DNA of 64,000 bases from Schmidtea polychroa (lineage: Eukaryota). Below are positions 1,700 through 33,664 of the stretch, in pieces. Positions within the stretch are counted from its first letter, which is position 1, and each line of letters begins with the position of its first letter. The notes under the pieces are model-generated. The model searched no databases. It saw nothing but the letters and a program-made list of their open reading frames with translations, and was not told where the DNA came from. Position numbers and translations under genes: made by a program. Location of the stretch: assembly GCA_044892525.1 (NCBI GenBank), contig CM097885.1:5582001-5646000 (forward strand), given 5' to 3'.

Positions 1700-4600
1700 T
1701 TAACTCTCAGATTGGCAGCTTGAGCTTTGCCGTCAAAGCTTTGGCCCACTCTCAATTGCTTACTCTGGCTTTACTTTCTCATAATTACCTCACTCTTATT
1801 TGTCCATTCTGACAGTCACTTCATTAAAACAAAAATATTACATAATTGACATTATTGTGATAATGAACTGCCCAAAAGTTTATAAAAATAAATATTATAA
1901 ATAAATATTCATATAAAGATTTGTCCAAAATTACATAAATCTGATAAATGTCATTTTGATCATTACAAATTGATAAATGTTTTACTGATTATCTCATCAT
2001 TTTTTGTTTCGATCTTTCATTCACTAATTTTCATTATTTAACATATAAAATAATCATGTTCATTACAAAACCAATAGCATATCAAATAATGACAATATAT
2101 AAGTATGATGACTAATTGTAATCAGCACTTTCTAATGAAATGTATTTATTATAAATATTATAATAAATTATAAATTTAAATAGTTTTATAAACAATAAAA
2201 TAATTTTAAAAACCATTTACTGCTTCATAGTCAAGCTTTTTAATAAATACAATGTCAATTGAAAAGAAATCAGTGGTAAAAATTGCAAAATGTTCTTATA
2301 ATAGATTAAATATAAATAATATTTATTAAATATATTTAAGATTTTTAATTTCATAATCATTTTATTTTTACATGTATATATTTTTAAACTCTTTCTAAAA
2401 AATATTTTATTTAAAATTTAAATTATTAAAATTAATTTAAAAATAAAATAAATAATTAAATCAAATTATTGTTAGGTAATTTCTGATGGAATATTTAAAG
2501 TTTAAATTTTAAACAAACAAATAAAATTATTATAAATATAAAATTTCAATATAATTTTATACCAAGTAAGATTTGGAATTATAATTTATTGAAATGATGG
2601 CCCGAATAATTCTCACAATTATAAATAATATTATAAAAATATTAATATTATTATTAAATTATATATTTTTAAAATAAATTGAAAAAATATTTAAATTTAT
2701 AATATTAATTTTTTTAAAAGATAACAAAATTGAAATTAAATTATTAATAAATATTAATTAATTTAAATTTTAATAAATTATTTTAAATATGAGAAAATTT
2801 CTGAAACAAAGTCGAGATTAAATTATTATTAAATATTTTAAATTTTAAAAAGAAAATAAATATTTAAATCGAATTATTGTTATGTAATTTCTGATGCAAT
2901 ATTTTAACAAACAAATAAAATAATTAAAAATAATTATTATTTTATTAAAAAAACAATTATTAAAATAATTATTAAATTATTTTAATTTTATAACCATTTT
3001 TACATGAATATATATAATCTTTTTAAAAATTATTTTAAATTTAAATTATTAAAATAAATTTAAAAATAAAATTATTATAAATATAGCATTTCAATATAAT
3101 TTTATACCAAGTAAGATTTGGAATTATAATTTATTGAAATGCTGGCCCGAATAATTCTTGGTCACAATTATAAATAATATTATAAAAATATTAATATTAT
3201 TATTAAATTATATATTTTTAAAATAAATTAAAAAATTATTTAAATTTATAATATTAATTATTTAAAAGAAAACTAAATCGAGATAAAATTATTAATAAAT
3301 ATTAATTAATTTAAATTTATTTTTATAAATTATTTTAAATATGAGAAAATTTGTAAATATTTGTTTGAATATATTTAATTGTTATTTCATATTTAACATT
3401 TGACATCCTCTCAACAATGCCTCCGAAATTTCTTACAAAATCCGAAAGGAAAACATTGGAAGAAGAACAAGATCAACAATTGATCAGTTGCATCAAATTG
3501 TCCCATAATTTTGTCAACAAAACCGAAGATCAAAGCGCACCAATGAAATCATTTGCACTTGAAAATTTGAACATGACGATCCTTGAAAAGGTTTTGCTCA
3601 AAGATTCAACTATCACAATTGAACATGGGAAAAGATATGGTCTTATTGGTAGCAATGGATCCGGTAAATCTATCCTATTCAAAGCCATTCAAATGGGCTT
3701 ATTCGACTTTCCAAAGGATTACACAATCGGAATTGTCGAAGAAGAATGTCTTGCTGATGGAACTAAAGTTGTCGAATGCTTTGTTGGTAAAGATGAAGTT
3801 GAAGATTTCATGGTGAGATTTGCTGACGTGAAAAGCAGAGCTGTCAACAAGAAGAACAAAGATGTTGAAGTACCAAAACTCGTGAAAATATTAGATGGAA
3901 TGGGATTTACTGCTGAAAAGATGAATGAGCACGTTGGTAATTTATCTGGTGGTTGGAGAATGAAGATTAGTTTGGCAACTGTTCTGATGGCTGAACCAGA
4001 TCTTTTACTTTTAGATGAACCTACTAACATGTTGGACGATAGAACTATCAAATGGCTGTCGGGATTTTTGAAAGAATGGAAGACGAATTTATTTTTCATT
4101 TCTCATGACGGAGGCTTTTTATCTAACGTTGCAACGGATTTGTTATCGATTGAAAATAAAACTGTCGTACATTATGCTTGCAAATACTACGAATGGTTGA
4201 GGAATCAAGAACTCGACAGAGATAAAGTTAGAAATCAAATCCAAGAACAAAAGGCACAGAAAGCTGAATTGATGGAATACATAAAAAAGTTCGAAAAGAC
4301 AAAAAAGAAAGAAGTCGCTGCTAAAAGACAACAAATAAAAAAGATGCCCGTCATTGATGAAAGCATTCTAGAACCGAGAGAAATCTGGAGATTTCCCGCT
4401 TGCTTGAAAATCAAGTGCGCTACAATTGAAACGAATGAAATGGGATTCAGTTTTGGTCACGCTAAAGAAATATTTAGAAACATCACATTACGCGTTCAAC
4501 CCGATTCTAAAATCTGCATCCTCGGAGACAACGGTTGCGGTAAAACTACTCTATTGAAGATCTTCATGAAAATCCTCAAACCCACCAATGGAAACATGTT

Positions 4601-5863
4601 CTTAAATGATCGAACAAATGTCGGCTACTTCAGCCAGCATTACGTCGACCATTTGGAACTGGATAAATCAGCAATTGAAATTATGCAGATCCGAGTTCCC
4701 AACTGCAAACTCGAAACTTATCAAAGTCATTTGTTGAAATTCGGAATCACAAGTGAAGATTGGAACATTCCGGTCAGATGTTTATCATCGGGACAAAAGT
4801 CAAGAGTAGCTTTCTCCACTATTTACATGCAGAAGCCTAACTTTTTGATTTTCGATGAACCGACAAGTCATTTGGATAAAGATGGAACTGAAGCTTTAGA
4901 AGATGCTTTGAGGAAATTCAAAGGAGGAGTTATTGTTGTTACTCATGATGGAAGGATGATGTCAAATGTTTGCAAGGATTTGTGGTACATCCAGAACAGA
5001 ACTGTCAGCGTTGTTGAGGACGGCTGTATGATATAAATAAATGTTTCCATAAATAATTTTGCTTTTTATTTTATTCCTCAAATTTTATACACAAATTTAG
5101 AAAAACGTCATTCTATTAAGTATCCAAATAATTAGATGTTATAATCGATAACAAGCGATAACTAGACCGATAACCAATTGGACAAGAGCTAGCTAGGCCA
5201 ATAACCAATTGGACAAGAGCTAACTAGAGTGACATCTATTTTATGAGAATACCATAAGGTTATAATCACGATTTCTTTCAATATCACTGACAAGTTTAAA
5301 TTTTGTTTTAATATTTATTTAAATAAATTAATAAAAGTAATATTCGAAATGAAACCTTTCTGAATAAACCTCGTGTTTTCAGTCGATGGATATGGATAAT
5401 TCCTAATGGAGATCTTTCAAAAGAAGCACTAAATATCTTCATTTTAGTTTTAGATATCAAAGATTCAAAACCTTTGAATCAAAGGATTTTGTAATCAAAT
5501 TAGCTTTTCAACGTCATATTGTTGATATTTCAGAGGAGCCAAAGAATCTACAAATAGAGTCAATAGAGCTCTGAATTGATGATATTGTAATTTCAATATT
5601 TAATTTGAAAAAGGATCCTATTGAAATTTGTGTCCAAATGTTTGTGAACATGCTTGATAAATGCCTTCATGATTTGTTTTCATTTCCATTACATCATTAT
5701 GTAAATCCCTTTTCGATAGTTTACATCAACATTTCCCAAACATTATATCCGTACTCTCTAAAAACAATGAATCTTTCCTCAGACTCCGTATAAAAAAACC
5801 ATAAATAATATATATTATTTATTAATAATTGTTTACTATGTTTAACAGAATATTAATGAGAAA
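1700..5863 (+). repeat. Left arm of a large inverted duplication
   Basis: Reverse complement of 10397-14026. Mirrored ORF coordinates sum to 16260 (3417+12843, 5036+11224, 5605+10655). Contains an extra local duplication (~2520-2800 repeated at ~3065-3350) that the right arm lacks. Confidence 0.95.
3417..5036 (+). CDS. ABC-F family ATPase (two ABC domains, no transmembrane domain), intronless, copy 1
   Basis: 539-aa ORF. Domain 1: Walker A GSNGSGKS, signature LSGGWRMKISLA, Walker B LLLLDEPTN, ISHD. Domain 2: GDNGCGKT, YFSQH, LSSGQKSRVAF, LIFDEPTSHLD, VTHD. Confidence 0.92.
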   Translation: MPPKFLTKSERKTLEEEQDQQLISCIKLSHNFVNKTEDQSAPMKSFALENLNMTILEKVLLKDSTITIEHGKRYGLIGSNGSGKSILFKAIQMGLFDFPKDYTIGIVEEECLADGTKVVECFVGKDEVEDFMVRFADVKSRAVNKKNKDVEVPKLVKILDGMGFTAEKMNEHVGNLSGGWRMKISLATVLMAEPDLLLLDEPTNMLDDRTIKWLSGFLKEWKTNLFFISHDGGFLSNVATDLLSIENKTVVHYACKYYEWLRNQELDRDKVRNQIQEQKAQKAELMEYIKKFEKTKKKEVAAKRQQIKKMPVIDESILEPREIWRFPACLKIKCATIETNEMGFSFGHAKEIFRNITLRVQPDSKICILGDNGCGKTTLLKIFMKILKPTNGNMFLNDRTNVGYFSQHYVDHLELDKSAIEIMQIRVPNCKLETYQSHLLKFGITSEDWNIPVRCLSSGQKSRVAFSTIYMQKPNFLIFDEPTSHLDKDGTEALEDALRKFKGGVIVVTHDGRMMSNVCKDLWYIQNRTVSVVEDGCMI

Positions 5864-6134
5864 TCTTGCTTAAATTTATTCATTGAAACATGTAAAAAAA
5901 GAATTTAATTAAGATTTTTTTCTTTGTTTAACTGATGGCATATTAAAACAAACAAAACTGCATGGAATTGTTTTTCTTATTCGACATATATAAACAGAAT
6001 CAGTGAATATTTGTAATGTATTTTATCAACAGGTTGTCAATGTATTAAAATGTAATTAATAGTATAATTAATAAATAATTATATATAATCAAATAAATAA
6101 TATTTTCGAATTATTTTAATTTGTTGTTTTAAAT

Positions 6135-8078
6135 TCAAAATTTATGCTTTCTAATGTAATTTGCCATCTTTGAGCATTCGAAACCCTTTTTCCCAAACTT
6201 GTAGTTATCATACGCCACTCCAAGATTTTCCAGTTTGGTAAACATTTGAACGTGTTTCACGGGGGGTAAATATCCTACAACGTTGCATTCCCGACAATTG
6301 CCAGGTTCAATGCCATGATTCGGCAGTTGGGTAGATGTTGGTGAATAAATCTGGAACCAGCACTGAAAATAGAAATTAATTAATTAAATTAAATAATAAT
6401 AAAATGTGTATGCATTCATGTAGTAAAACATTTGATTTCATTCATTTACAACTTACTGCTGCCAGATGTGTAATTGTGTAATTGTGTAAGTGTGTTTATA
6501 TTAATTTGGTGAGCCTAGCATGATATGAGCTTTCTCATTGGCCTGATTTGTAAGATATCAAATGTATTTATATATGATAAGTGACACAATTAAGATATTT
6601 GATAGAACTGGGTGGTCATTCGGCCAAGTTTCTGCACCTTAGAGTAAGATCCAAAGTGACTGTTATATATAATATTAATAAAAATCTAATAAGCTAGAAA
6701 TAAGTATTCCATATTTGGATCACAATTTAATTATTTTGATATTTACTAGTATATATAATATATATAACCTCGATTATTCTATCTATGGTGCTATGATGGA
6801 GTATGAATAGAGGATCATTTGATGCTGTTGATGCACAACACATTGATCCTTCGACCATATTGTGTACTTTGTTGTGCATATAAAGAGAAGTACTTTTATC
6901 CTCATTTCTCCCACAAAACCCTTCTAACGCCAAATGAAAAGCCCTACAGTTTCCCATATAATTTATCTTTTCATCTTTCACAAAATATCTGTCAAAAATA
7001 ACTCAATTTCTAAAAGGAATCAAATGATAAAATGTTACGAGCTGTGTCGGAGGACAAATTGTAGATCTTCCGTCAAAGGAAATTCCGTGGACATATATCG
7101 ACGGTTAAGAGGTGGGAACCTTTGTCTAAAGTGACACCCGACGCATTTGGAATTTCCCATTGGTGGGGAGCAGTACTCAGTCCAATTGTGAAACTGACTT
7201 CCTTTGTCGATCAGCCAGATTTGATTTATATAGTCGAATTTCCCTGTTGCACCGACATATCGATTATTGCAGACCTGGTTGAAATTATTCCGTCAAATAT
7301 TTGTAATACTGTAAAAAAACATTACTTCACACGTTTTAGCATCAAGCCAATCCCAATAAGGAATTGCAAAGTCCTTCCATTGAAACTCCTTCATTGCGAT
7401 TTTTGCTAGTTCCCTTTCCCAGTGCAACATCAAAGCTCGGTGCCAAGTAGCAAAGGAGACCGTGTTGTGATTGTAATCAAGATATCCGAAAGTTGAACAC
7501 ATTTGTCTGTTACCGAACAAAGTAGACCGGCTCGCATACCGATGAATAAAGGCAATAAATTCCTGAAAAGTCGCGTAGAGAAATATCGGGTTAACAAGAG
7601 GATCGGAATATTCTGGGCTTGATTCTTTCAAAACCAGAAATTCGCTGGGAATTTTATTACTTATCTCAAGAATACGCAAAAATCTCTTGCGTTCAAGATC
7701 TGAAAATGAAAAAATATTTCTTCGTATTTTGATAACTCGCTTGTCACAATTCTTTCCTTCCCAACCGTACCAACAGCTTTCACATGCGATTCCAAAGAAA
7801 TTTCCTTCACAATTGCACATTCGTTTAAAGAAACGCGTTGGCCAGTGCATTCTATCATCGTCTTTGAACACCCTTGCAATTGGTTCCCAGTGAGTATATA
7901 CTTTATCACAAACCCCTCTACCTACACCACCACAAGGCTTTTGAAATCCTTCCGGTATGGGACAACAAGTTTTGAGAGTTGAAGAAACGTTATGAACACA
8001 AACTTTTGGAACTAATCCTGAGATTGAATTGGTGATAATGGATCCGACTGTGAAGATTAACAGAATGGAGAGAGTCAT
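6135..8078 (-). CDS. Tyrosinase (type-3 copper phenol oxidase), 4 exons: 8078-7326, 7274-7039, 6988-6769, 6362-6135
   Basis: Signal peptide and Cys-rich EGF-like region (CNCEGNFFGIACESC). CuA region H...YNHN.VSFATWHR followed by PYWDW. CuB region HNKVHNM...NDPLFILHHSTIDR. GT-AG introns of 51, 50 and 406 bp join in frame; the protein ends ...RKHKF*. Confidence 0.93.
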
Positions 8079-8284
8079 TCCTTCTGAACATGCAAGAAAC
8101 TAGTGTAGAATTATCGCGATCTTTAGACGTACAATAACACGTTTCGGTAAGAGATTATATTCCGGTGATATCTGTATGAAATACATGCAAATGATTACCG
8201 CAAATCTAAATTGTTTTACTGATATTGCAAATTCGTGCCAAAATTGTTTTTTGTTTAAGACATAATTTCATTTAGGAATAAAAT

Positions 8285-8429
<145 letters not shown>

Positions 8430-10396
8430 CAATTATTGTCACTCATATTTAATAAAAACACTACACTGCCAAACAAACGAAATATATTTCAAGGAAAATA
8501 TCCACATCATCAGTCTGCTATCATAATCGATTATATACAGAAACAATAATAATGTAATAGTTATGATTTAATTAAATGATATAAATAAATTTGTTTCTCT
8601 TAATAAAATAAAAAAAATAAAATAAAAAAAAATAAATAAATAAAAAAACAAATAAATAAAAATTATTTTAAAGCATGTGTAATTCAATTTAATTTTAAAA
8701 TAATGGAAGAAGTATTATTACTGTTTGGGAATATACAAAATATATGAAATAAAAATATAGAAAATTACAAATTATCAAAATCAATTAAAAATTAATTTAA
8801 AAATCAATATTTACTCAGGAAAAGTGGTAACGGGTGACAAATGAGATTTTGAAGACTAATAAAAAAGTTTTATACTGATTAGAGGTTCATAGAAAGATTA
8901 GAACCCCAAAATACAAATAATTAAATTAATTAATTTAAATATCATTGAGGATCCAGTTAAACGTCAGCTTAATAGACACAATAATTTTAATAAACTGCCC
9001 AGACATCGGATTAATGGGGTAATAAATTGTTCAACCGGTTCCAGTTCAGAATAAATCAAAATTAATGGGGAAAATAATATAAAAACGAAGTTGAACAAAA
9101 CAAAAGGGCAGTTGGTCGAATAATGTAAAAGAGAGAATAAATTTGTCAAGGAGAATCAGAATGGAAAACCAAAGAAATTAGATTGAATTTTTTGATTAGG
9201 CTGACAACCATGAAATAATCAACTGTTGCATAAAGTGTATTCGATTTTTTTGAAAACAAAGTTATTTTGTTGGGATTGAAATTCTATTTACTTACTGATC
9301 GAACACGAGCAGTCGGATTGAGAGCTGATTCCTATCGACAAAACTATTAACATCTCAACATAACGAATGAAATTATTCCAATATATTTATTCATGGTCAT
9401 CGGGTAACTCCTGCAGTGTAACTTGTGCAATAATTTTGTGTAAAATTTGATTTTATTGATCTACGATAGGACAAAATTCGAAAGGGGGTCACAATGTTCG
9501 CGACCCAAAAAGTTGATATCTGATGGGAACGATATAATTGTCGCTATTACAAAAGAGCTATGATCAGTAAAAGTTCATTTTATTAAAATATTTGCTTGGC
9601 ATCAATGTTTAAACTTTATGGGAATTCCCCCCACACCAAACTACTATTTAGAATCTCATAAATATCCCTTTGGGCTAGGGGAAAATTAGCTCTTTTCATA
9701 ACTTTTCATTAAATTTTTATAAAAATTATTCATCAACTTTATATGGCAATTATCATGAGAATTATTTACTTATGACCCTGGAGCTTGGAAAATTGAAAAA
9801 TTAAATTTCTCTCACTGCCGAAAGGGATTTCTAATGGATTTTGGAAGGGAAACAAATGAATCAAATTTGGCAATTACTCGAAGAATTACTTTTTGATTTA
9901 TTTGCAACAAATCCATTATGATGACAAGAAACTATGAAATACTTGCAGAATAAAATGAGGGGAAAAGGGGAGGTGGAACTCGTTACTGTGCAGTCGAGGA
10001 AAGATAAATATTTACTTAAAATTAGGATTTACGAGGTAAATTTACGGAGTAATCTCGGCGGCGATTCGATATGTTTCGTTTTCTCTATTTAAAAACTTTG
10101 AAATATTTATTTTTGTTTTGATTAGCTTTAATAAATCAAAATTAATTTTCCTTAACACTTTTGTGTTAAATTATCTGTTATCCTTCCTGCTCAATATTGA
10201 TCGATTTTCATTTCCGATTTCCAATATCTGGTTTCCGTACCAGACTCCAGATCAATATTTTGATTTATTTAACATTAAATTTCGGCACAACCTTTAGAAA
10301 ATAGTTGATTTAACTTTGAGGCAGATTGGGAATTTATTTATCATAAATTTCATCAAATTAAAACAACATATTTCAAAAATATAAAAATTAATTATT

Positions 10397-13300
10397 TTTC
10401 TCATTAATATTCTGTTAAACATAGTAAACAATTATTAATAAATAATATATATTATTTATGGTTTTTTTATACGGAGTCTGAGGAAAGATTCATTGTTTTT
10501 AGAGAGTACGGATATAATGTTTGGGAAATGTTGATGTAAACTATCGAAAAGGGATTTACATAATGATGTAATGGAAATGAAAACAAATCATGAAGGCATT
10601 TATCAAGCATGTTCACAAACATTTGGACACAAATTTCAATAGGATCCTTTTTCAAATTAAATATTGAAATTACAATATCATCAATTCAGAGCTCTATTGA
10701 CTCTATTTGTAGATTCTTTGGCTCCTCTGAAATATCAACAATATGACGTTGAAAAGCTAATTTGATTACAAAATCCTTTGATTCAAAGGTTTTGAATCTT
10801 TGATATCTAAAACTAAAATGAAGATATTTAGTGCTTCTTTTGAAAGATCTCCATTAGGAATTATCCATATCCATCGACTGAAAACACGAGGTTTATTCAG
10901 AAAGGTTTCATTTCGAATATTACTTTTATTAATTTATTTAAATAAATATTAAAACAAAATTTAAACTTGTCAGTGATATTGAAAGAAATCGTGATTATAA
11001 CCTTATGGTATTCTCATAAAATAGATGTCACTCTAGTTAGCTCTTATCCAATTGGTTATTGGCCTAGCTAGCTCTTGTCCAATTGGTTATCGGTCTAGTT
11101 ATCGCTTGTTATCGATTATAACATCTAATTATTTGGATACTTAATAGAATGACGTTTTTCTAAATTTGTGTATAAAATTTGAGGAATAAAATAAAAAGCA
11201 AAATTATTTATGGAAACATTTATTTATATCATACAGCCGTCCTCAACAACGCTGACAGTTCTGTTCTGGATGTACCACAAATCCTTGCAAACATTTGACA
11301 TCATCCTTCCATCATGAGTAACAACAATAACTCCTCCTTTGAATTTCCTCAAAGCATCTTCTAAAGCTTCAGTTCCATCTTTATCCAAATGACTTGTCGG
11401 TTCATCGAAAATCAAAAAGTTAGGCTTCTGCATGTAAATAGTGGAGAAAGCTACTCTTGACTTTTGTCCCGATGATAAACATCTGACCGGAATGTTCCAA
11501 TCTTCACTTGTGATTCCGAATTTCAACAAATGACTTTGATAAGTTTCGAGTTTGCAGTTGGGAACTCGGATCTGCATAATTTCAATTGCTGATTTATCCA
11601 GTTCCAAATGGTCGACGTAATGCTGGCTGAAGTAGCCGACATTTGTTCGATCATTTAAGAACATGTTTCCATTGGTGGGTTTGAGGATTTTCATGAAGAT
11701 CTTCAATAGAGTAGTTTTACCGCAACCGTTGTCTCCGAGGATGCAGATTTTAGAATCGGGTTGAACGCGTAATGTGATGTTTCTAAATATTTCTTTAGCG
11801 GGACCAAAACTGAATCCCATTTCATTCGTTTCAATTGTAGCGCACTTGATTTTCAAGCAAGCGGGAAATCTCCAGATTTCTCTCGGTTCTAGAATGCTTT
11901 CATCAATGACGGGCATCTTTTTTATTTGTTGTCTTTTAGCAGCGACTTCTTTCTTTTTTGTCTTTTCGAACTTTTTTATGTATTCCATCAATTCAGCTTT
12001 CTGTGCCTTTTGTTCTTGGATTTGATTTCTAACTTTATCTCTGTCGAGTTCTTGATTCCTCAACCATTCGTAGTATTTGCAAGCATAATGTACGACAGTT
12101 TTATTTTCAATCGATAACAAATCCGTTGCAACGTTAGATAAAAAGCCTCCGTCATGAGAAATGAAAAATAAATTCGTCTTCCATTCTTTCAAAAATCCCG
12201 ACAGCCATTTGATAGTTCTATCGTCCAACATGTTAGTAGGTTCATCTAAAAGTAAAAGATCTGGTTCAGCCATCAGAACAGTTGCCAAACTAATCTTCAT
12301 TCTCCAACCACCAGATAAATTACCAACGTGCTCATTCATCTTTTCAGCAGTAAATCCCATTCCATCTAATATTTTCACGAGTTTTGGTACTTCAACATCT
12401 TTGTTCTTCTTGTTGACAGCTCTGCTTTTCACGTCAGCAAATCTCACCATGAAATCTTCAACTTCATCTTTACCAACAAAGCATTCGACAACTTTAGTTC
12501 CATCAGCAAGACATTCTTCTTCGACAATTCCGATTGTGTAATCCTTTGGAAAGTCGAATAAGCCCATTTGAATGGCTTTGAATAGGATAGATTTACCGGA
12601 TCCATTGCTACCAATAAGACCATATCTTTTCCCATGTTCAATTGTGATAGTTGAATCTTTGAGCAAAACCTTTTCAAGGATCGTCATGTTCAAATTTTCA
12701 AGTGCAAATGATTTCATTGGTGCGCTTTGATCTTCGGTTTTGTTGACAAAATTATGGGACAATTTGATGCAACTGATCAATTGTTGATCTTGTTCTTCTT
12801 CCAATGTTTTCCTTTCGGATTTTGTAAGAAATTTCGGAGGCATTTTTGAGAGGATGTCAAATGTTAAATATGAAATAAGAATTAAATATATTCAAACAAA
12901 TATTTTCAAATTTTCTCATATTTAAAATAATTTATAAAAATAAAATTTAAATTAATTAATATTTATTAATAATTTAATCTCGACTTTTTATATGTAAATA
13001 TTTAAAGTTTTTTCAATATTATTCAAAAATATATAATAAAATATATTAATGATTTAATCTCGATTTTGTTTTTTTTTAAATTAATATTATATTTATATTT
13101 AAATATTTTATCAATTTATTTTAAAAATATATTATTTAATAATAATATTTATATTTTTATAATATTATTTATAATTGTGACCAAGAATTATTCGGGCCAG
13201 CATTTTAATAAATTATAATTCCAAATCTCACTTGGTATAAAATTATATTGAAATTTTATTTTTATAATAATTTTAATAATTTAAATTTTAAATAAAATAT

Positions 13301-14026
13301 TTTTTAGAAAGAGTTTATAAATATATGCATGTAAAAATAAAATGATTATGAAATTAAAAATCTTAAATATATTCAATAAATATTATTTATATTTAATCTA
13401 TTATAAGAACATTTTGCCATTTTCACCACTCATTTCTTTTCAATTGACATTGTATTTATTAAAAAGCTTGACTATGAAGCAGTAAATGGTTTTTAAAATT
13501 ATTTTATTGTTTATAAAACTATTTAAATTTATAATTTATTATAATATTTATAATAATTTTTATAGTAATATTTATAATAAATACATTTCATTAGAAAGTG
13601 CTGATTACAATTAGTCATCATACTTATATATTGTCATTATTTGATATGCCATTGGTTTTGTAATGAACATGATTATTTTATATGTTAAATAATGAAAATT
13701 AGTGAATGAAAGATCGAAACAAAAAATGATGAGATAATCAGTAAAACATTTATCAATTTGTAATGATCAAAATGACATTTATCAGATTTATGTAATTTTG
13801 GACAAATCTTATTATGAATATTTATTTATAATATTTATTTTTATAAACTTTTGGGCAGTTCATTATCACAATAATGTCAACTGTGTAATATTTTTGTCTT
13901 AATGAAGTGACTGTTTGAATGAACAAATGAGAGTGAGGTAATTATGAGAAAGTAAAGCCAGAGTAAGCAATTGAGAGTGGGCAAAAGCCTTAATGGTAAA
14001 GTACAAACTGACAATTTGAGAGTTAA
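10397..14026 (-). repeat. Right arm of the large inverted duplication
   Basis: Reverse complement of 1700-5863. Outer end ...TTGAGAGTTAA mirrors TTAACTCTCAG at 1700. Confidence 0.95.
11224..12843 (-). CDS. ABC-F family ATPase, intronless, copy 2
   Basis: 539 aa; the only protein difference I can see from copy 1 is FSFGPAKE versus FSFGHAKE. Confidence 0.92.
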   Translation of the reverse strand: MPPKFLTKSERKTLEEEQDQQLISCIKLSHNFVNKTEDQSAPMKSFALENLNMTILEKVLLKDSTITIEHGKRYGLIGSNGSGKSILFKAIQMGLFDFPKDYTIGIVEEECLADGTKVVECFVGKDEVEDFMVRFADVKSRAVNKKNKDVEVPKLVKILDGMGFTAEKMNEHVGNLSGGWRMKISLATVLMAEPDLLLLDEPTNMLDDRTIKWLSGFLKEWKTNLFFISHDGGFLSNVATDLLSIENKTVVHYACKYYEWLRNQELDRDKVRNQIQEQKAQKAELMEYIKKFEKTKKKEVAAKRQQIKKMPVIDESILEPREIWRFPACLKIKCATIETNEMGFSFGPAKEIFRNITLRVQPDSKICILGDNGCGKTTLLKIFMKILKPTNGNMFLNDRTNVGYFSQHYVDHLELDKSAIEIMQIRVPNCKLETYQSHLLKFGITSEDWNIPVRCLSSGQKSRVAFSTIYMQKPNFLIFDEPTSHLDKDGTEALEDALRKFKGGVIVVTHDGRMMSNVCKDLWYIQNRTVSVVEDGCMI

Positions 14027-15130
14027 TCAAAAAAATAATAATAAATAAAACATTTGAATTTAATAATAATATTTATATTTTTATTTATAACTCTCACTTT
14101 GAAATTTTATATATATAATATTTATATTTCATCACAAATTGCATTGAATTTAATTAATGTATTTTGTTTAAAATTTTATTTTTTATTAAAATTTATAATA
14201 TATAATTGAAATATTAATTATAAATATTTTAATTGATTTTTTAATTATTGATGCAATGAAAAAATTGAATTTTATATATAAATAAAATTTATTTCATTGT
14301 TTTTATGAATATAAAAATATTTAATTTAATTTAATTTTGATTTATTAATCTGACATGTGAATATTATTCAGAATTGCTAAAATCTAAATTGTATATTTTT
14401 AAATAAATGTCATTTTAATAATTCATTTTTATTGTAAGAATATTTCTAAATTTTATTTTTGTAATAATTTTCAATAAAATATTTTATTCTTTTCATAATT
14501 GATTTATTTAATTTTTATTGTTTTATTTTAATTAAATATTGATTAAATTTATTTTTAAAATTTTATAATATTGTATATTATATAATATTATTATTTTTTG
14601 AAATTGGGATATTATCAAGTGAGAATTGTCAAAATTTAATGAAAATAATTAGTTAATTTGTAATAAAAAAAATATTTAATGTAATTATTAATAATATTAA
14701 AACTAAAATCAGTATCATCAAACATTGATAATGAAGATATTTCATTTTATTTAAAAATTATTTTTTCTAATTTATGTCATTTAATATTGTTAGATTATTA
14801 TTTAACAAGTCGGTTAGTTTCTGACTCTTCCTATCCGTTTTTATTGCAATCGAATAATCAAGTCGAACACAGAACACTTGATTCAATTTTTTATCACAAT
14901 TACAACTTTTCACTGTATTTGCACTTTTCTCTAGACCAACTGGCAATAATCCTTTTCAATCTAATACGATTTTTAAATTTTAACCCTTGAAGGTTTTGTT
15001 ATATTGACAATGGAAAAATTATTTATTGGGTTGAGTTCCAAATTTAATCTGAACAAAGGCAGACAAGTGCAAATTTACAGATAATCAATTAATTATTAAT
15101 TATTCGAATTACTATTTGCAAATCGAATTA

Positions 15131-15347
15131 CCGTATATACTCGCGTATAAATCGAGAAATTTACGTCAAATTTTCAAGTCAAAATAGCCACTTTGACTTA
15201 TACGCCGGTAAAAAAACGTACAAATTAATTTTTAATGAAATCATTAAACCTTTTTAAATTTTTGTTACTTCGACTTATACGCGGGTTTCCAATTTAGGAC
15301 TTAAAAACCTCTTAAAATTTACTCGACTTATACGCGAGTATATACGG
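15131..15347. mobile_element. Tc1/pogo(Tigger)-type MITE
   Basis: TIRs CCGTATATACTCGCGTATAA / TTATACGCGAGTATATACGG, flanked by TA on both sides; internal GACTTATACGC repeats. Confidence 0.85.
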
Positions 15348-15639
15348 TAGTCATAATTTTGGTGAGAAATCCACTGAAATATATGAAACATACAAATTTC
15401 TTTACAACATAAGCTGTGAATTAATTAATTAACTGGAACTTTACTTGATTGTGTAAAAAAATAGAAAAATAAAGGTCAAAGTCATGGGAAATGGTCATTA
15501 GTAAGGGGGGAATCCCAATAATATTATGGAATCTTGGACAGCAATTAGATATTGCTAGGTTTGTTAGGAAGGAACTGACAAAGGAAATCTTGTTTGGTTT
15601 TTACTTTTATTGAAAGCAATTATGGGTTTTTTTTATTAT

Positions 15640-15900
15640 TGGATTATCATCAGTAAGGATTCTGTCTGCCATGAGATAAGCTAAGTAGAAACCTATTACA
15701 AATTATCTCATTATTGAAATATCATCTCTAGCAGGAAGTGCTCTCATGAATACCTTAGTTCCAGATCTAGCGATTGTTCTCAATTTGTTGATCAAATCTG
15801 CATTTGTCATTCCGATTCCAGTGTCAATAATATTTAAAGCTCTAGCATCTTTATAGGAAATAATTTTATTTCCACAACACAATTTAATTTCAATAAACAA
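15640..15900 (-). pseudogene. HSP90: HSP90 N-terminal ATPase domain fragment
   Basis: [32 protein letters not shown]...DISIMR*FVIGFYLAYLMADR matches the Hsp90 motif DTGIGMTKADL.NNLGTIA.SGTK.FMEAL...GQFGVGFYSAYLVAD, with an in-frame stop. No further HSP90 sequence seen nearby. Confidence 0.88.
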
Positions 15901-16420: not shown

Positions 16421-17263
16421 TTATGGTTTCGTACAATAAATCGTCTGTTGCATCTCCACAATTAGTTTTACGTCTATCGGATAGCCTTTGCGTGACGTAA
16501 TATCTTGCATGTTGATAGTGCAGTTCGGATTTTGATCCGGGTCTTCGTTAAAATAGTCGTCAGTGAACGTTTCGTAGAGGAGTCCATTGGTATCTTGATG
16601 ATATATCCTATAAGTTACAATTAAATGTACATTTTTCCATTGTCTACTGTAAAACGATGGCAATAGCACAAGATATTCATTGATGAATTTAATTTTCAGT
16701 CCATAATCTAAACGAAATATCATGTGAAATAAATCTATGAACATTGCATTACTATTTACCGTCCGAATGGGGGTCGTTTTGTCAACCTGAATATTAGAGT
16801 AAAATATAGGATGAATAAGTCTCTCATAAAGCGTAACGTTGCCGGAAAAAGTTGTCGGACTAATTACATTTCCCCAGTAAGGGTCTTTTGGAGAAATGAT
16901 ATCCGAAGGAATTTCATATTGGGGGCTTCTCACCTTAAAGTTATTCATATTCAGTTGAAAAAATGCATGGCGCAAGTGGAAATCGAGTTTGTACCAGATT
17001 GGTTTAATTACAATATCCAAGCTAACCATCAAACAATTGTTGTAACAGTAAGTTATAAATTCGAGCCAGTGTTTATCTTTCCATGTGTACATGACCAGAT
17101 AGCATGGGAACTTTGCGACTTTTCCAATCGTAAAAACAGGGCTTGACCAGATTGTTCCCGATTGTTTTAGAGCCTCGCCAATTTCAGCTAGACTCACCAG
17201 GAAATAAAAATTGTTCGTTGGTAGAGCAGCCATGACCTGATTTAGAAATATCATACAATACAA
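16421..17263 (-). CDS. Uncharacterised ~280-aa protein (probably a last exon), possibly tandem MATH/TRAF-like domains
   Basis: Long ORF in AT-rich DNA. Clearly similar to 26515-27270 (WSSPVFTIG/WNSKVFEIG, CYNNCLM/CYNKCLM, TDDYFNEDP/TDDIFYSDP, TIYC/TLYC). A small upstream exon is plausible at ~17284-17333. Confidence 0.7.
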   Translation of the reverse strand: MYCMIFLNQVMAALPTNNFYFLVSLAEIGEALKQSGTIWSSPVFTIGKVAKFPCYLVMYTWKDKHWLEFITYCYNNCLMVSLDIVIKPIWYKLDFHLRHAFFQLNMNNFKVRSPQYEIPSDIISPKDPYWGNVISPTTFSGNVTLYERLIHPIFYSNIQVDKTTPIRTVNSNAMFIDLFHMIFRLDYGLKIKFINEYLVLLPSFYSRQWKNVHLIVTYRIYHQDTNGLLYETFTDDYFNEDPDQNPNCTINMQDITSRKGYPIDVKLIVEMQQTIYCTKP

Positions 17264-17389
17264 TGAAACCTTTCAAAAAGACCTTGTTATTATCTGGATC
17301 ATATTTTGTTCTATTCCTGAGGATGCAATTATCTGAAACGATCAAATATAATTACAAATAAAATTATATAATCTATGAAATAAAACATT

Positions 17390-18385
17390 GGATGATAATA
17401 ATGACAACAATGACAACAATGACAGTAATGACAGCAATGACAATAAAGACATAAATGTCAGCAATGACAGCAATAATAACAAGGACAGTAATGACAGCAA
17501 TGACAATAATGACAAAAATGTCAGCAATGACAGCAGTATCAGCAATGACAGCAGTGTCAGCAATGACAGCAGTGTTAGCAATGACAGCAGTGTCAGTATG
17601 ATAACAATGACAGCAATGACAAAAATGACAGCAATGTCAGCATGATAACAATGACAGCAATGACAAAAATGACAGCAATGACAGCAATAATGACAATGAC
17701 AGTAATGACAGCAATGGCAATAATGACAAAAATGTCAGCAATGACAGCAGTGTCAGCATGATAACAATGACAGCAATGACAAAAATGTCAGCAATGACAA
17801 AAATGTCAGCAATGACAAAAATGTCAGCAATGACAGTAATTACAAAAATGACAGCAATGTCAGCAATGACAGCAATGACAATAATGACAAAAATGTCAGC
17901 AATGACAGCAGTGTCAGCATGATAACAATGACAGCAATGACAAAAATGTCAGCAATGACAGTAATTACAGCAATGACAGTAATTACAGCAATGACAGTAA
18001 TTACAGCAATGACAGTAATTACAAAAATGACAGCAATGTCAGCAATGACAGCAATGACAATAATGACAAAAATGTCAGCAATGACAGCAGTGTCAGCATG
18101 ATAACAATGACAGCAATGACAAAAATGACAGCAATTTCAGCATGACAACAATGACAGCAATGACAGCAATAATGACAATGACAGTAATGACAGCAATGAC
18201 AATAATGACAAAAATGTCAGCAATGACAGCAGTGTCAGCATGATAACAATGACAGCAATGACAAAAATGTCAGCAATGACAGTAATTACAGCAATGACAG
18301 TAATTACAAAAATGACAGCAATGTCAGCAATGACAGTAGTGTCAGCAATGATAACAATGATAGCAATGACATCAATGACAATAAC
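17390..18385. repeat. Minisatellite of degenerate 9-bp units (CAATGACAG) with higher-order blocks
   Basis: About 1 kb of AATGACAGC / AATGTCAGC / AATGACAAA variants. Confidence 0.95.
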
Positions 18386-19630: not shown

Positions 19631-20167
19631 AATAAAATATTTCTCTCAGAAATACAATGCACATTTTGGGCAAAAATGTTAACTATTTAGGGAAAATGTA
19701 TTTTTTGTAATTAATATTAATAATTGATAAGTTGCATTAATTCCCCTTTTTTTATTCTTTGACTTTTTTGTTAAATTTCTTGATAATTCTCAACAAAAAC
19801 AAATGAATGATAAAATAACAAACCTGTATGTGCTTGGTATAGAATTTTTTTTATTGAATTAGGAGTGTAATTTATGCGACTGCCCAACTCAGATTTGTTT
19901 TCTAAAAATAGTAAATACACATATAAATACCCTGAAACAAAAAGTATCAATGCGCAATACCCCCCTCTCTTTAAAAAAAGATGGCATTTTTTCCATCATT
20001 TAAAATTTCATTATCATTATCATTATTATTATTGTATTTATTAAAAAGCTTGATTATGAATCAGTAAATATATCGATGATTTTTTGATATATTTACTGAT
20101 TCATAGTAAAGCTTTTTAATAAATACAATGTCAATTGAAAAGAAATCAGTGGTGAAATTTGAAAAAA

Positions 20168-20325
<158 letters not shown>

Positions 20326-25673: not shown

Positions 25674-26514
25674 TTTTTGTCAATTACTATTTTTTTGGTG
25701 GTTTTCTTGTAAACTCTAGCATAGTCAGATTAAATTCAGTAGAGTTTTCGACATAAAATTTTAAATATTTATCTATCATTGTTTCTTCAAAAAATTTAAA
25801 CTGCTTATATTTCATGCAATATTTCTACATATCGAAAGTCTATATGCAAATTTTACTATATGTTGTGTTTGTATGTTAAATTTATTTTTTCTATCACTTT
25901 TTCTACCACTTTTTAATATTGCTTTTATTCTATACAATATTAAAATTCAGCAAACAGGTAAGTTTGTATGGTTTTATAATATGAGTTTATTAATTTTTTT
26001 AATATTATAAATGCTTTTTTTTCAAACAAACATATGTATAAAAGAAGGTTTAGTTATAACATTTCTGTAAGATAGACAATTTTGTATATATTATGAATTT
26101 CGAATCATTTTTATGCATATATGTAACGTACACTAACAAATGTACTAGAATCTACCTTGATCGATCTAAGAGATTGAGTCAAATGTCTTTATGACCTCCA
26201 AGCCTCTCATGTGACAGCTCTTACCAGCTGTATATTGCGCTTGGATAAAAATCAGCTAATATAAATCAGAAGGGCTCAAACTTATCCCAAGTTGTAAATC
26301 CGCAGATGCTCAGAACCCATAAAACATATACATAAAGACGTAGCCAATACAAAATACACAGTAGGTAATGCGGTAATTCCGCCACGAATTAGAAAGTCCA
26401 GGTTTGGATATCTAAGTTATATATCCTTCTGATGAAGAGCAATTTATAATGAAACCAATCATTTATTTAATTAAAAAATTTTAAAAACATGTTTTCATTT
26501 TATCATTTTGACAG

Positions 26515-27270
26515 TTTCAATTTCCAACTTGGAACAGCAAGGTATTCGAAATCGGGTTTAGGCAAAAATTCAAAATGAGTCTTCAATTGAAAGTCAACCC
26601 AGCCCCGTCTTTAGATGTTCGGGTAAAGATCCATTGTTATAACAAGTGTTTAATGGCTCACATGATCAAGTTGACAATAATTAATGATAGAGTTGGCAAT
26701 AGTAGTTCAAGAGATTTGGATCATTTTATTTTTAATTTAAACAATCGTGGTGATATTAGTCCATGGTTTGGTGTGAACCATGAAAAGGTATTCGTTGTCT
26801 TTGGTCGCTTGTCTTATCGCTTAGAGCCGGTCAGATTGTATGGGCGTATAAGCATATTTGAATACGATGAATATAGATATTACATTGAGAATATTAAAGA
26901 CACTGATGTGCCTAATAATCAAGGAATCAAGGAGATAAGTATACGTTATTTTGGTTGTTCAACTCTCTAAATGTGTCATATAGGTACCAGACTTTCAATC
27001 GACAACATAGACCTTAATTACTTCGTTTATTATAAACCAGCACACACTTTTGGATCAAAACTTCATATGAAGGTTAGGATCAAAATGATTTCCTCACTGG
27101 ACCCCTCATTTTATATTGAGAAAGCAACAGATGACATTTTTTATTCTGATCCGAAAATAAAAGGTCCGAATATAAGTTTCAGTTATAAAGAATATTTTGA
27201 GAAAAAGGTCAAGATTACGTCAATGTTTCATTTGGAAGTACTGTCGACTTTGTATTGTTATCATGAATAA
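26515..27270 (+). pseudogene. Paralogue of the 16421-17263 gene, with an in-frame TAA at 26968-26970
   Basis: After acceptor TTTTGACAG the frame reads FQFPTWNSKVFEIGFRQKFKMSLQLKVNP... The two listed ORFs are in the same frame, split by one stop, and together align with the 280-aa ORF. Possible signal-peptide exon at ~25874-25957 ending CAG|GTAAGT. Confidence 0.65.
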
Positions 27271-27789
27271 AATGGCAGTTTATTTATTTCAATAGAAAAT
27301 TTATATTTTTCTTTGGGACAATAATGTTGATGAAAAATCAAAAAGATGTTTAGTGTGTCCTATAAATGGTAGAGTAGATTATAACGAATCGTATGAGCTA
27401 TAAATCTTTAAAATCCATTGAGAATTTTGATGAGAAATCAAAAGAATTAAAATACTTTTATTGAAGTAAAAACGTTAGTAAAGGGGTAAGTTTGAAGTTT
27501 GCCTCTTACAGCTGTCAATATTGATTTTAGTTACCAAACGTTTGTTATCTTTTATTTTCAACTAATATGGCAAATTTAGTCAAGTTTGTTTTCGTTTATA
27601 TAGAGCTACTGCAACATGTATAAATCATATCAATTATGTTTCCAATATTTCGTCTAAATAAGGACAATAAATCTTAAATTTTTTGACACCGCCTAACTAG
27701 TCGTTATTATGCATGTCAGGATCCGGAATTTCATTTTCATACTGAAATGAAATTATGCCAATTATGCCAATGCCAATTGATCTTATCAC

Positions 27790-28431
27790 GACCGATCTTG
27801 GTACGATCCTGGTGATCAACCAACAACATCAATTCGTCGATGTTTGACAGCACAAAAGCACTTTGCAACTATTTGTTGGGATGTGAAAGGAATTCTCCTG
27901 TGTAATGTATTTCATCAAGGAAAAAACATAAACGCAGAAATTTACTGCGCTCAGTTGGATAAACTCGTAGATGCGATTCGAGAAACAAGGCGCCGGTTGA
28001 GTAGAAACAGTTTTGAAAGGTTCCATTTCCTTCATTATAATGCTCAACCGCATACGAAAAGTTTAACTCAAAATAAACTTGTTGAGATCGGTTGTACGGT
28101 AATACGCATCAACCATACTCCCCAGACCTTGCCCTTTTAGACTATTACCTGTGTTCTCCTATGAAAACTCACTTCGTAAGAAAACGTATCACTTCGTCGA
28201 AGAGGTTAACGGTGATTTGGAAAAAATGGTTTGCTTCAAAACCTGCGGAATTTTTTGAAAGCGGCATAAAATAACTTCCAGAATGCTAGCGTAAAAATGT
28301 GGATCTTAAAGGTGATTTCAGATTTACAGAATTGTTCACAGTTTTGTTTATATTTCCAAATTAACTTATTGACTTTATTGGTTAAATAAATATTATTTTC
28401 TATCGGATAAGACTTTCGTTCCAATCTTATA
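27790..28431 (+). mobile_element. Degenerate mariner element (transposase catalytic region and right TIR)
   Basis: ICWDVKGIL...INAEIYCAQLDKL...FLHYNAQPH, then a frameshift to HQPYSPDLA.LDYYL (mariner YSPDLAP motif). Right end ACTTTCGTTCCAATCTTATA. Confidence 0.85.
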
Positions 28432-29770: not shown

Positions 29771-31813
29771 CGTATTCCGACAATCCGCCAACACGACAAT
29801 CCAGCAAGTACGACAATTCGCCAAACGACAATCCGCCAAATGACAATCCGCCAACACTAAAAAATTGGCCAACGCTGACATTTATAAAAAAAATATTTGT
29901 AGGTCATCATATTAAAATTAATTCACATGTACTTGTACAACAAATTTGCCTAAATAATCATTCAAATAAAAGCATTAAAATCAAATCAGTATCATTGCGA
30001 CATGTTGAATGTGAGTAGTACTCTTGTGAGCAATACCCATAGGGGGTCAAAACATCTTGTCGGATAAACTCAGAGTATATATAATAAAACGAATTAACTC
30101 ATTCAAATTTATCTTTGAATCAGTCAAATTATCACAAATTTTGATAAAAAATCTTGTTTACCTCTCAGCCAGTTAAATTGTTTAAATATTTAATTAAAAT
30201 TTTATATTAAACCAGGGGTTCTTAACCTTTTTTACATCATACCTCACCTAATATTTAATTTGATGTTCTCACCTCCAGCAGAATTATTTTTTTTAAGAAA
30301 AGATAAGAAACATAATTAGTGGTATACCAACATTACATATATTATTTTATTTTCACCATTTTAATATATTTATAAAAAAAATTATATTTAATTCATACTG
30401 TGATATAAAAAATTATATTTTATATTTAATTCATATTGAAAAAATTTATTTAAAGTTTAAAGATAGAAAATATGTGAAAAATTTAAAGAATAATTCCCAA
30501 ATTCAAAGAATATTTTTTATATAAATACTACAAAATAATAAGGCAGCATTAATGAGATGATTGTTGCTGCTTGTCGTCAATAAGATGCGAAATTCGCGGA
30601 ACAATCTTAGACAATGCTAAGCGCATGTCATGCCTGGCATCCAATCGATTTCTGGTTTTCGGCTTTACATTGACCAATGTTGAAAATGCAGATTCGCAGA
30701 GGTATGTTGTTGCAAATGGTATCAAAGCTGAAAGAGCTTTATTTGCCAAAACCGGATAAGAATCTATTTGTGAGCACCAAAATTCATCAAGATTTTGGTT
30801 GATAAATTTTTGCCTGACCATAGCCTTGCTCTGTAAATCAATGAGGTCGTCTTTTTGCATGTCAGCATCATCCAAGGAGTCTAAATTAAATATGAAGGGA
30901 TTTCGAATCCACTGATCAATTTTCAAATTGTTTTCTACAAAGTAGTTATCAAAAGAATTCATGAGATTATCCAAATGTATTAAAATATCAGTTCGAATCC
31001 AATCTGGCACCGCTTTTAATAAATATTCAGCACAGAAAATTTTTTCTAGAGATGGGAAATTTGCATAATTACCTTTTGATACGCGGTTCTTCCAAAGAGC
31101 TAGTTTTTGCTTGAAGGCTGTAATCTTCTCATTTGCATCTAAAATAGTAACTTCTGACCCTTGAAGGGAAATATTTAGATCATTTAAATGTGAAAATACA
31201 TCTGCAAGATAGGCCAATGATGCAGTAAAATTGTGAGTTTCAAACTCTCCACACAATTTATTTTCTTTCTCTCGAAGAAATGTTATTATCTCCATTTTGA
31301 GTTCCAGGACACGAGTGAAAACTCGTCCACGTGAAATCCAGCGTACATCAGTGTGATAAAGCAGCATTTCATGAGAAGCTCCAACTTCTTGGCATAATAT
31401 TTTGAAGAGTCTGTGATTCAAAGCTCGAGATCGGAAGAAATTTACAGCTTGGACAGTGATATCCATGGCAGACTTGAGTCTTTGTGGAAGAGTTCGTGAT
31501 GCCAATGCATGGCGATGTAAAAAACAATGCAGAACCATAACATTTGGAGCCCTCGCTCGTACCAATGCTCCAAAACCAGAATTTTTCCCTAATAATTAAA
31601 CAATTACTAGTTGATTCTTATCTTTCAGCGGAGAATTTATTATTAAAATTTTAAAAATATAATAAATTTAAAATGTATGTATGTTAAAACAAAAATTTAT
31701 CGACTTTTTGGCAGATTGTCGCTTTGAACTATTTGGCGGATTGTCATTTGGCGAATTGTCGTTTGGCGGATTGTCGCCAGCCTATTAATGATTTGGCGGA
31801 TTGTCGTACAACC
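29771..31813. mobile_element. MULE/Mutator-like non-autonomous element with repeat-rich TIRs, carrying nested fragments
   Basis: GACAATCCGCCAA repeats at the left end are inverted as TTGGCGGATTGTC repeats at the right end. 9-bp TSD AATTTGAAC at 29762-29770 and 31814-31822. Confidence 0.8.
30213..31592 (-). mobile_element. 5'-truncated hAT Buster/Charlie element (ZBED8/SCAND3-like transposase, C-terminal half; ORF 30549-31565)
   Basis: Motifs HCFLHRHALAS, LLYHTDVRWISRG, LAYLADVF, FATTYLCESAFS and ...QQQSSH*. One TIR CAGGGGTTCTTAACC at 30213. Confidence 0.9.
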
Positions 31814-33480: not shown

Positions 33481-33664
33481 TTACAATTGAAAACTTTCCC
33501 AAACTATTTTGTAACAAATTCAATAAATAATTTGGTGAGTGTAAAAATTGATTATTGTGCACAAATTTACATGCGATCGATTTGTGAAATCCACCAATGA
33601 AAAAGCTAGCAGAAAAATTGTGAATTCAATCAATAATTTCACTGATTGACTGAACCAAAAAATC

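Follow-up and report, generated by a model that had tools for sequence, protein, structure and literature searches.

A small gene-bearing palindrome with layered arm identity in Schmidtea polychroa, most likely an inverted duplication with gene conversion

Introduction

Two described systems come closest to the locus analysed here, an inverted repeat of 12327 bp in the planarian Schmidtea polychroa, whose arms carry twin ABC-F genes and enclose a tyrosinase gene. The first are the palindromes of primates, for which inversion of the spacer between the arms is known (PMC8327919), and the second are the piggyBac transposons, whose terminal inverted repeats (TIRs) mostly measure 4–24 bp, the longest reaching 528 bp, and for whose animal members CCCTT, CCCTC, CCCAT and CACTA are listed as 5′ end motifs (PMC10813416). 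Flatworm genomes rearrange often and those of planarians exceed 70% AT (PMC11410931), and the evidence for gene conversion in flatworms has been called tentative (PMC13309565). The locus lies within a stretch of 64,000 nucleotides (GenBank assembly GCA_044892525.1, contig CM097885.1, positions 5,582,001 to 5,646,000 of the forward strand), hereafter the window, which has a GC content of 30% and from whose first letter all positions are counted. An initial annotation, made from these letters, had proposed either a giant-TIR or composite mobile element or a palindromic segmental duplication. The analysis presented below indicates that the structure is most likely an inverted gene duplication, the copies of which overwrite each other, rather than a giant jumping element.

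Architecture of the inverted repeat

Self-blastn of the window revealed one large inverted repeat, and self-blastn together with global alignment placed the arms at 1700–5863 and 10397–14026, which bears out the geometry first annotated, namely, arms of 4164 and 3630 bp facing each other across a spacer of 4533 bp. The difference of 534 bp between the arms stems chiefly from an AT-rich block that precedes the left ABC-F gene and has undergone rearrangement; this block contains a tandem duplication, in which ~2490–2800 is repeated at 3031–3352 (self-blastn). The genes are intact as well: both ABC-F frames of 539 aa are open, and in the splicing model the tyrosinase has an open frame of 478 aa. 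Homology had also been said to begin at TTAA on both outer sides, and it does. Both outer ends read TTAACTCTCA, with TTAA at 1700–1703 and 14023–14026. Past these positions, 24 of 50 bases agree without gaps, whereas shuffled sequences agree at 20.3 on average and reach at least 24 in 151 of 1000 cases, and in a second control set 23/248 and 76/248 controls score equally high. Homology beyond 1700/14026 is thus not above that of the controls, and the outer boundary is therefore fairly placed.

A remnant of a long terminal repeat (LTR) retrotransposon occupies positions 1–1423, with an integrase zinc-binding domain at 132–464 and a likely LTR of 232 bp at 1192–1423 (ends TGTTA...TAACA). It stops ~275 bp before the arm and is therefore not what sets the outer boundary.

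Identity along the arms

The initial annotation overlooked that the identity of the arms is layered, a pattern that points to gene conversion. Arm-to-arm identity ranges from 83% in the rim to 99.9% in the core, and values above 99% hold for the 2447-bp core only, with 83–97% elsewhere in the arms. Between the ATG and the inner edge, the arms differ at 2 positions in 2447 bp (99.9%), and next to the edge the match is complete as far as the final base, 5863/10397. For comparison, 727 bases aligned at the outer side hold 26 substitutions and one 24-bp indel, or 16 substitutions in 667 bases if the rim is excluded; the core differs from this upstream rate (2/2447 versus 16/667; Fisher p=2e-9), as does its non-coding 3′ part alone (1/827 versus 16/667; Fisher p=2e-5). 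Three mismatches fall in the 75 bases before the ATG, and the lower identity persists until 2 bases short of it, indicating that the older duplication reached the gene. Between the two ABC-F copies, none of ~318 synonymous sites differs, although the rate seen upstream predicts 7.6 changes (P ~5e-4). Given this lack of synonymous change and the near-identity of the non-coding 3′ DNA, protein-level selection is not the cause of the identity of the core, and the layering as such rules out a single duplication followed by even decay.

We therefore favour, with a probability of about 0.7, an older local inverted segmental duplication, that is, a gene-bearing palindrome, the core of which has recently been homogenized by arm-to-arm gene conversion. 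Under this scenario, a block of ~4 kb, in which an old ABC-F gene of the host is flanked by its upstream DNA and by 0.8 kb of downstream DNA, would have been copied in inverted orientation to the far side of the tyrosinase. The arms would have diverged after the duplication yet continued to pair and swap sequence by conversion, and indels would have blocked the conversion tracts, leaving behind the successive layers (rim, 83%; upstream, 96–97%; core from ATG to inner edge, 99.9%). The sharp inner edge may correspond to a 228-bp indel that halted conversion and left ~55 bp of older homology behind. By analogy with primate palindromes, inversion of the spacer by crossover between the 2.45-kb near-identical cores is plausible, and such an event would flip the tyrosinase without loss.

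Table 1. Coordinates of the arms, the spacer and the features within them
Feature	Position	Strand	Remarks
Left arm	1700..5863	+	4164 bp; self-blastn, alignment
Outer rim	1700..1759		50/60 bases match 14026-13967 (83%); TTAA then CTCTC; most diverged part of the arm
AT-rich upstream layer	1760..3416		~96-97% identical where alignable; indels, left-arm tandem duplication, dispersed repeat
Left ABC-F gene	3417..5036	+	Intronless, 539 aa, His at residue 348
3′ part of homogenized core	5037..5863	+	826/827 identical to 11223-10397
Spacer	5864..10396		4533 bp
Possible relic of older arm homology	6092..6146		Reverse match to 10396-10342; overlaps tyrosinase stop codon
Tyrosinase gene	6135..8078	-	Exons 8078-7326, 7274-7039, 6988-6769, 6362-6135; 478 aa; flatworm type
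(TA)70 microsatellite	8288..8428		Upstream of tyrosinase, near the middle of the spacer
Partner of possible relic	10342..10396		Abuts the right inner junction from its first base on
Right arm, inverted copy	10397..14026	-	3630 bp; self-blastn, alignment
Right ABC-F gene	11224..12843	-	Intronless, 539 aa, Pro at residue 348

The arms contain several smaller features. Within the homogenized core are a 31-bp tandem repeat (5151–5228) and broken coding-like frames (5339–5790), three pieces of which match no Pfam family below E=0.02 and for which the best Atlas score, 0.77, amounts to no match; a perfect 22-bp AT palindrome (5801–5822) lies 41 bp before the inner edge. A dispersed repeat is found inside both arms (left, 2215–2370), with 81% identity to 20091–20243; its copy at 20 kb forms a short hairpin with 20031–20069 and has an (ATT)n run breaking it up.

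Inner edge, spacer and competing explanations

The abrupt inner edge, with full identity to its last base, and the step in identity at the ATG would also be expected from one recent copying event, in which a break or template switch, starting in the older upstream DNA that the arms share, copied the gene plus a further 0.8 kb anew into the other arm and ended at a new junction. A third copy elsewhere would be an alternative source, and human fold-back duplications possess a spacer with short inverted sequence at the boundary (PMC3907307). More than two identity layers are present, however, and a possible relic of homology sits 228 bp off the junction, unlike what clean priming would leave. This scenario, which we rate as unlikely, is a close rival that differs little in mechanism from one long conversion tract.

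The possible relic is an alignment of 6092–6146 with 10396–10342 (45 matches, 7 mismatches and 6 gap columns), offset from the inner edge by 228 bp (5864–6091). The match sets in at the first base: the 60-base segment on the inner side of the right junction resembles 6092–6146 more closely than do any of 248 composition-matched controls, or any of 278 in another set, and this stretch of ~55 bp may represent older homology stranded behind a 228-bp indel. The offset segment was also considered as an inserted element and rejected; by eye, it displays neither terminal repeats nor a duplication. Similarly discarded was the idea that the entire palindrome has the (TA)70 run as its centre and that a second tyrosinase, now decayed, lies on the right side of the spacer; the best tblastn hit had E=0.78 and no diagonal DNA similarity rose above shuffles. 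The TA run lies 114–228 bp from the computed inner centres, a nearness that may be due to chance. Seven short frames in the spacer match no Pfam family.

An assembly artefact, whereby one ABC-F copy was written twice or two diverged copies were merged into one core consensus, could account for a core that is 99.9% identical. It sits poorly with the 26 substitutions and the 24-bp indel counted across the 727 bases aligned on the outer side, with the large rearrangements further in, and with the two core differences, which include a sensible ancestral/derived pair, and we regard it as improbable. Nor would a missed-adapter fold-back be expected to possess a 4.5-kb unique spacer or such differences between the arms. 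When words sampled from 3360–8250 were compared with sequencing runs, 7 of the 24 runs listed, all of which are represented by contigs, contained a share of at least 0.5, and these came from three studies; after study P1 was set aside as a possible source, another two studies, assigned to the same organism code, still contained at least 0.5 (0.86, 0.85 and 0.53). Twelve run rows with shares of 0.06–0.20 (organisms B and C, and one unlabelled) were not used as evidence, and there was no RNA run among the listed matching runs.

Several observations weigh against duplication followed by conversion. The arms were compared within one assembly, whereas the standard proof of conversion is that arms are alike within, and unlike between, two species that both carry them. 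The sequencing-run matches speak for the left core and the tyrosinase being real sequence and say nothing on the second copy, its adjacency or the junctions. The upstream block is the more AT-rich (82% versus 73%), which might raise its rate of change, though hardly about twentyfold. Of four tests at the junctions, three were negative and the fourth gave the possible relic, which is 90% AT; in a search of the whole spacer it is unexceptional, with locally shuffled spacers reaching 49 against the observed 45 and other scoring schemes performing no better. Finally, the contrast between the one residue that separates the two ABC-F copies and the 15 that separate the left copy from its nearest relative, P0003, is one of proteins and not of the arms of P0003.

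Outer ends and the possibility of a mobile element

Of the two alternatives put forward in the initial annotation, the palindromic segmental duplication fits the evidence, and the giant-TIR, piggyBac-type element does not. The latter would be a non-autonomous giant-TIR or composite DNA transposon inserted at TTAA, with ABC-F in its arms and the tyrosinase as enclosed cargo. TTAA does stand on both outer ends, where the homology ends; however, it is its own reverse complement, so that any inverted duplication including one displays it twice, and its presence at both ends therefore counts as one observation. TTAA is moreover expected by chance, starting within 2 bases of 11–12%, and within 5 bases of 22–23%, of positions in the end regions. 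The outermost 60 bp, which need to match for recognition by a transposase, are the most diverged of the arms (50/60), with the first mismatch 7 bases after TTAA; the ends of working transposons are well matched, the opposite of the diverged rim observed here. No target-site duplications other than TTAA were detected at the outer edges. The resemblance to Teratorn, which too has a unique region between long inverted repeats (PMC6431247), and the match of part of the upstream arm to the dispersed repeat at 20091–20243 are in keeping with a transposon, whereas the CTCTC that follows TTAA is none of the motifs listed for piggyBac ends, CACTA, CCCTC, CCCTT and CCCAT (PMC10813416). A transposase frame is likewise missing from 1700–14026: the frames of at least 200 aa belong to the two ABC-F genes and to exon 1 of the tyrosinase, and the 10 shorter frames scanned inside the structure belong to no transposase family, a result with which a non-autonomous copy is still compatible. 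Taken together, these observations make the mobile element the least probable of the explanations considered.

In its fullest form, this idea would posit a non-autonomous fold-back element, 12.3 kb long and bounded by non-canonical TTAA-CTCTC ends, that has a complete, old translation-factor gene (ABC-F) in each 4-kb arm, captured a reproductive tyrosinase, is mobilized in trans and can flip its cargo, a proposition that we consider very doubtful. If true, it would mean that a flatworm ABC-F gene stripped of its N-terminal domain is spreading as transposon cargo, and only proof of mobility would make the locus surprising.

Elsewhere in the window, remnants of mariner-type and hAT-type transposases are present at 27781–28140, 30549–31595 and 46645–48063; none is piggyBac-like and all are more than 13 kb from the palindrome.

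The ABC-F genes

The two ABC-F copies are identical at 1619 of 1620 bases, and the sole difference, an A/C site at 4459/11801, produces the His/Pro replacement at residue 348. Pro is found at this position in the 97%-identical relative P0003 and in most of the ABCF3 rows shown; therefore, it is the left copy that carries the change. The copies are thus 1 residue apart, and P0003, the nearest relative, differs from the left copy at 15. Both near-identical copies are probably functional. The encoded protein contains two PF00005 domains and the PF12848 linker, without a transmembrane domain, and the nucleotide-binding motifs, which we take to be Walker A, Walker B with the catalytic Glu and the H-loop, are kept in both halves. 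An AATAAA overlaps each ABC-F stop (left, 5036), three more follow within 330 bp (5322, 5330 and 5363), and a read-through transcript would need to extend more than 5 kb beyond the gene to reach the other arm; double-stranded RNA from convergent read-through, as suggested in the initial annotation, is accordingly possible but unsupported.

The best relatives of solved structure are ABCF1 and Arb1. Among the best 120 matches, two close relatives (97% and 52%) are followed by animal ABCF3-type proteins at ~33–41%, and every named match with a subfamily label is ABCF3; a search that covered every 50% representative brings in one more relative, a fragment at 53%. In a FastTree phylogeny of 97 rows, with no named ABCF1 or ABCF2 rows, the window protein and its relatives at 97%, 52% and 53% form a four-member group outside the named ABCF3 group, with full support and a stem of 1.26, a position to be read with long-branch attraction in mind. 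The ABCF3 N-terminal domain is absent from the window protein (P0001) and from all six frames of the window, and no N-terminal ABC-F exon was found upstream of the gene within the window. The relative P0004 retains a weak trace of this domain (15.6 bits; best shuffle 8.8, with 484 of 500 shuffles scored). By sequence, then, the ABC-F genes represent a host lineage that is old, divergent and ABCF3-like and has no N-terminal domain. A metagenome scan for this lineage produced 3 loci from 106 candidate stretches, which are 24–31% identical, are not lineage members and were not used.

Members of the ABC-F family are ribosome-binding ATPases (PMC6723617), and human ABCF3 associates with GCN1 (bioRxiv 10.64898/2026.09.19.752920). 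By analogy, the window protein most likely acts as a soluble ribosome-binding ATPase. Yeast Gcn20 binds Gcn1 through its N-terminal part, and from the missing N-terminal domain we infer that the Gcn1-type link has been lost. Thus, the second point of interest of the locus is a very divergent ABCF3-like protein that lacks the N-terminal part and is intact in two copies.

The enclosed tyrosinase

The modelled introns of the tyrosinase gene are of the GT-AG type and measure 51, 50 and 406 bp. The product contains PF00264, and the model is collinear with four relatives; an ATTAAA lies ~15 bases past the stop. Histidines 179, 204 and 213 and histidines 368, 372 and 395 are present in the spliced model and are presumably the six copper-binding residues of the two sites, in a type-3 copper pattern. 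A yolk-gland tyrosinase of planarians is needed for the tanning of the egg capsule (PMC5544531).

Other features of the window

An intact intronless histone H2A frame (36200–36595, minus strand) lies antisense between pieces of an EF-hand/coiled-coil/Rab-type gene (33650–40893, plus strand) and is probably nested in one of its introns. A broken Hsp90-like fragment at 15730–15900 (minus strand; HATPase_c_3, E=0.0018) is probably a piece of a pseudogene. Two orphan frames, 16421–17272 (minus strand) and 26512–27270 (plus strand), belong to no Pfam family and are alike by eye, sharing CYNxCLM and TDDxF stretches. Two long frames of 440 and 335 aa (43010–45340, plus strand) with one stop between them also match no Pfam family and possibly encode a transposase of an unmodelled family. 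The window further contains a 9-bp minisatellite of ~110 copies (17400–18380) and a small imperfect inverted repeat of ~220 bp (15129–15349) that resembles a miniature inverted-repeat transposable element.

Comparison with known systems

The tyrosinase resembles those of other flatworms: among 5 matches, the two that carry names, from Fasciola and Paragonimus, are 51% and 45% identical to it, and it has a similar length and the same pattern of copper-site histidines. The egg-capsule tanning gene (PMC5544531) is a planarian tyrosinase too, and the likeness drawn here is one of family. The window protein resembles the ABCF3/Gcn20 subfamily in having a pair of ABC domains with the PF12848 linker between them and in lacking a membrane domain; unlike these proteins, it has neither the N-terminal domain nor the C-terminal tail, its arm is ~25 residues shorter and its linker is changed, and the tree, subject to the long-branch caution given above, does not nest it within ABCF3. 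TTAA at both outer ends is common to the locus, the piggyBac superfamily and Teratorn, as are, for Teratorn, long inverted repeats around a unique region, whereas none of the listed end motifs, no matched short terminal repeat and neither transposase nor viral genes are present here.

Neither this locus nor any ABC-F palindrome of a planarian turned up in searches of non-subscription literature or in term searches of the main texts of PMC11410931 and PMC13309565. The closest parallel is with the gene palindromes of the primate X and Y chromosomes (PMC8327919, PMC8600007), which arm-to-arm gene conversion keeps alike and which likewise have inverted arms with intact genes, a unique spacer, >99% identity in the core and possible spacer inversion. 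The planarian structure differs in that its arms measure 3.6–4.2 kb, of which only 2.45 kb are >99% alike, and in that it belongs to an invertebrate and is not known to be tied to a sex chromosome. With its layered identity, this small palindrome would be a tidy invertebrate case of concerted evolution, a known process, and a handy marker for the rates of inverted-repeat conversion and inversion in flatworms. This class of feature is well known.

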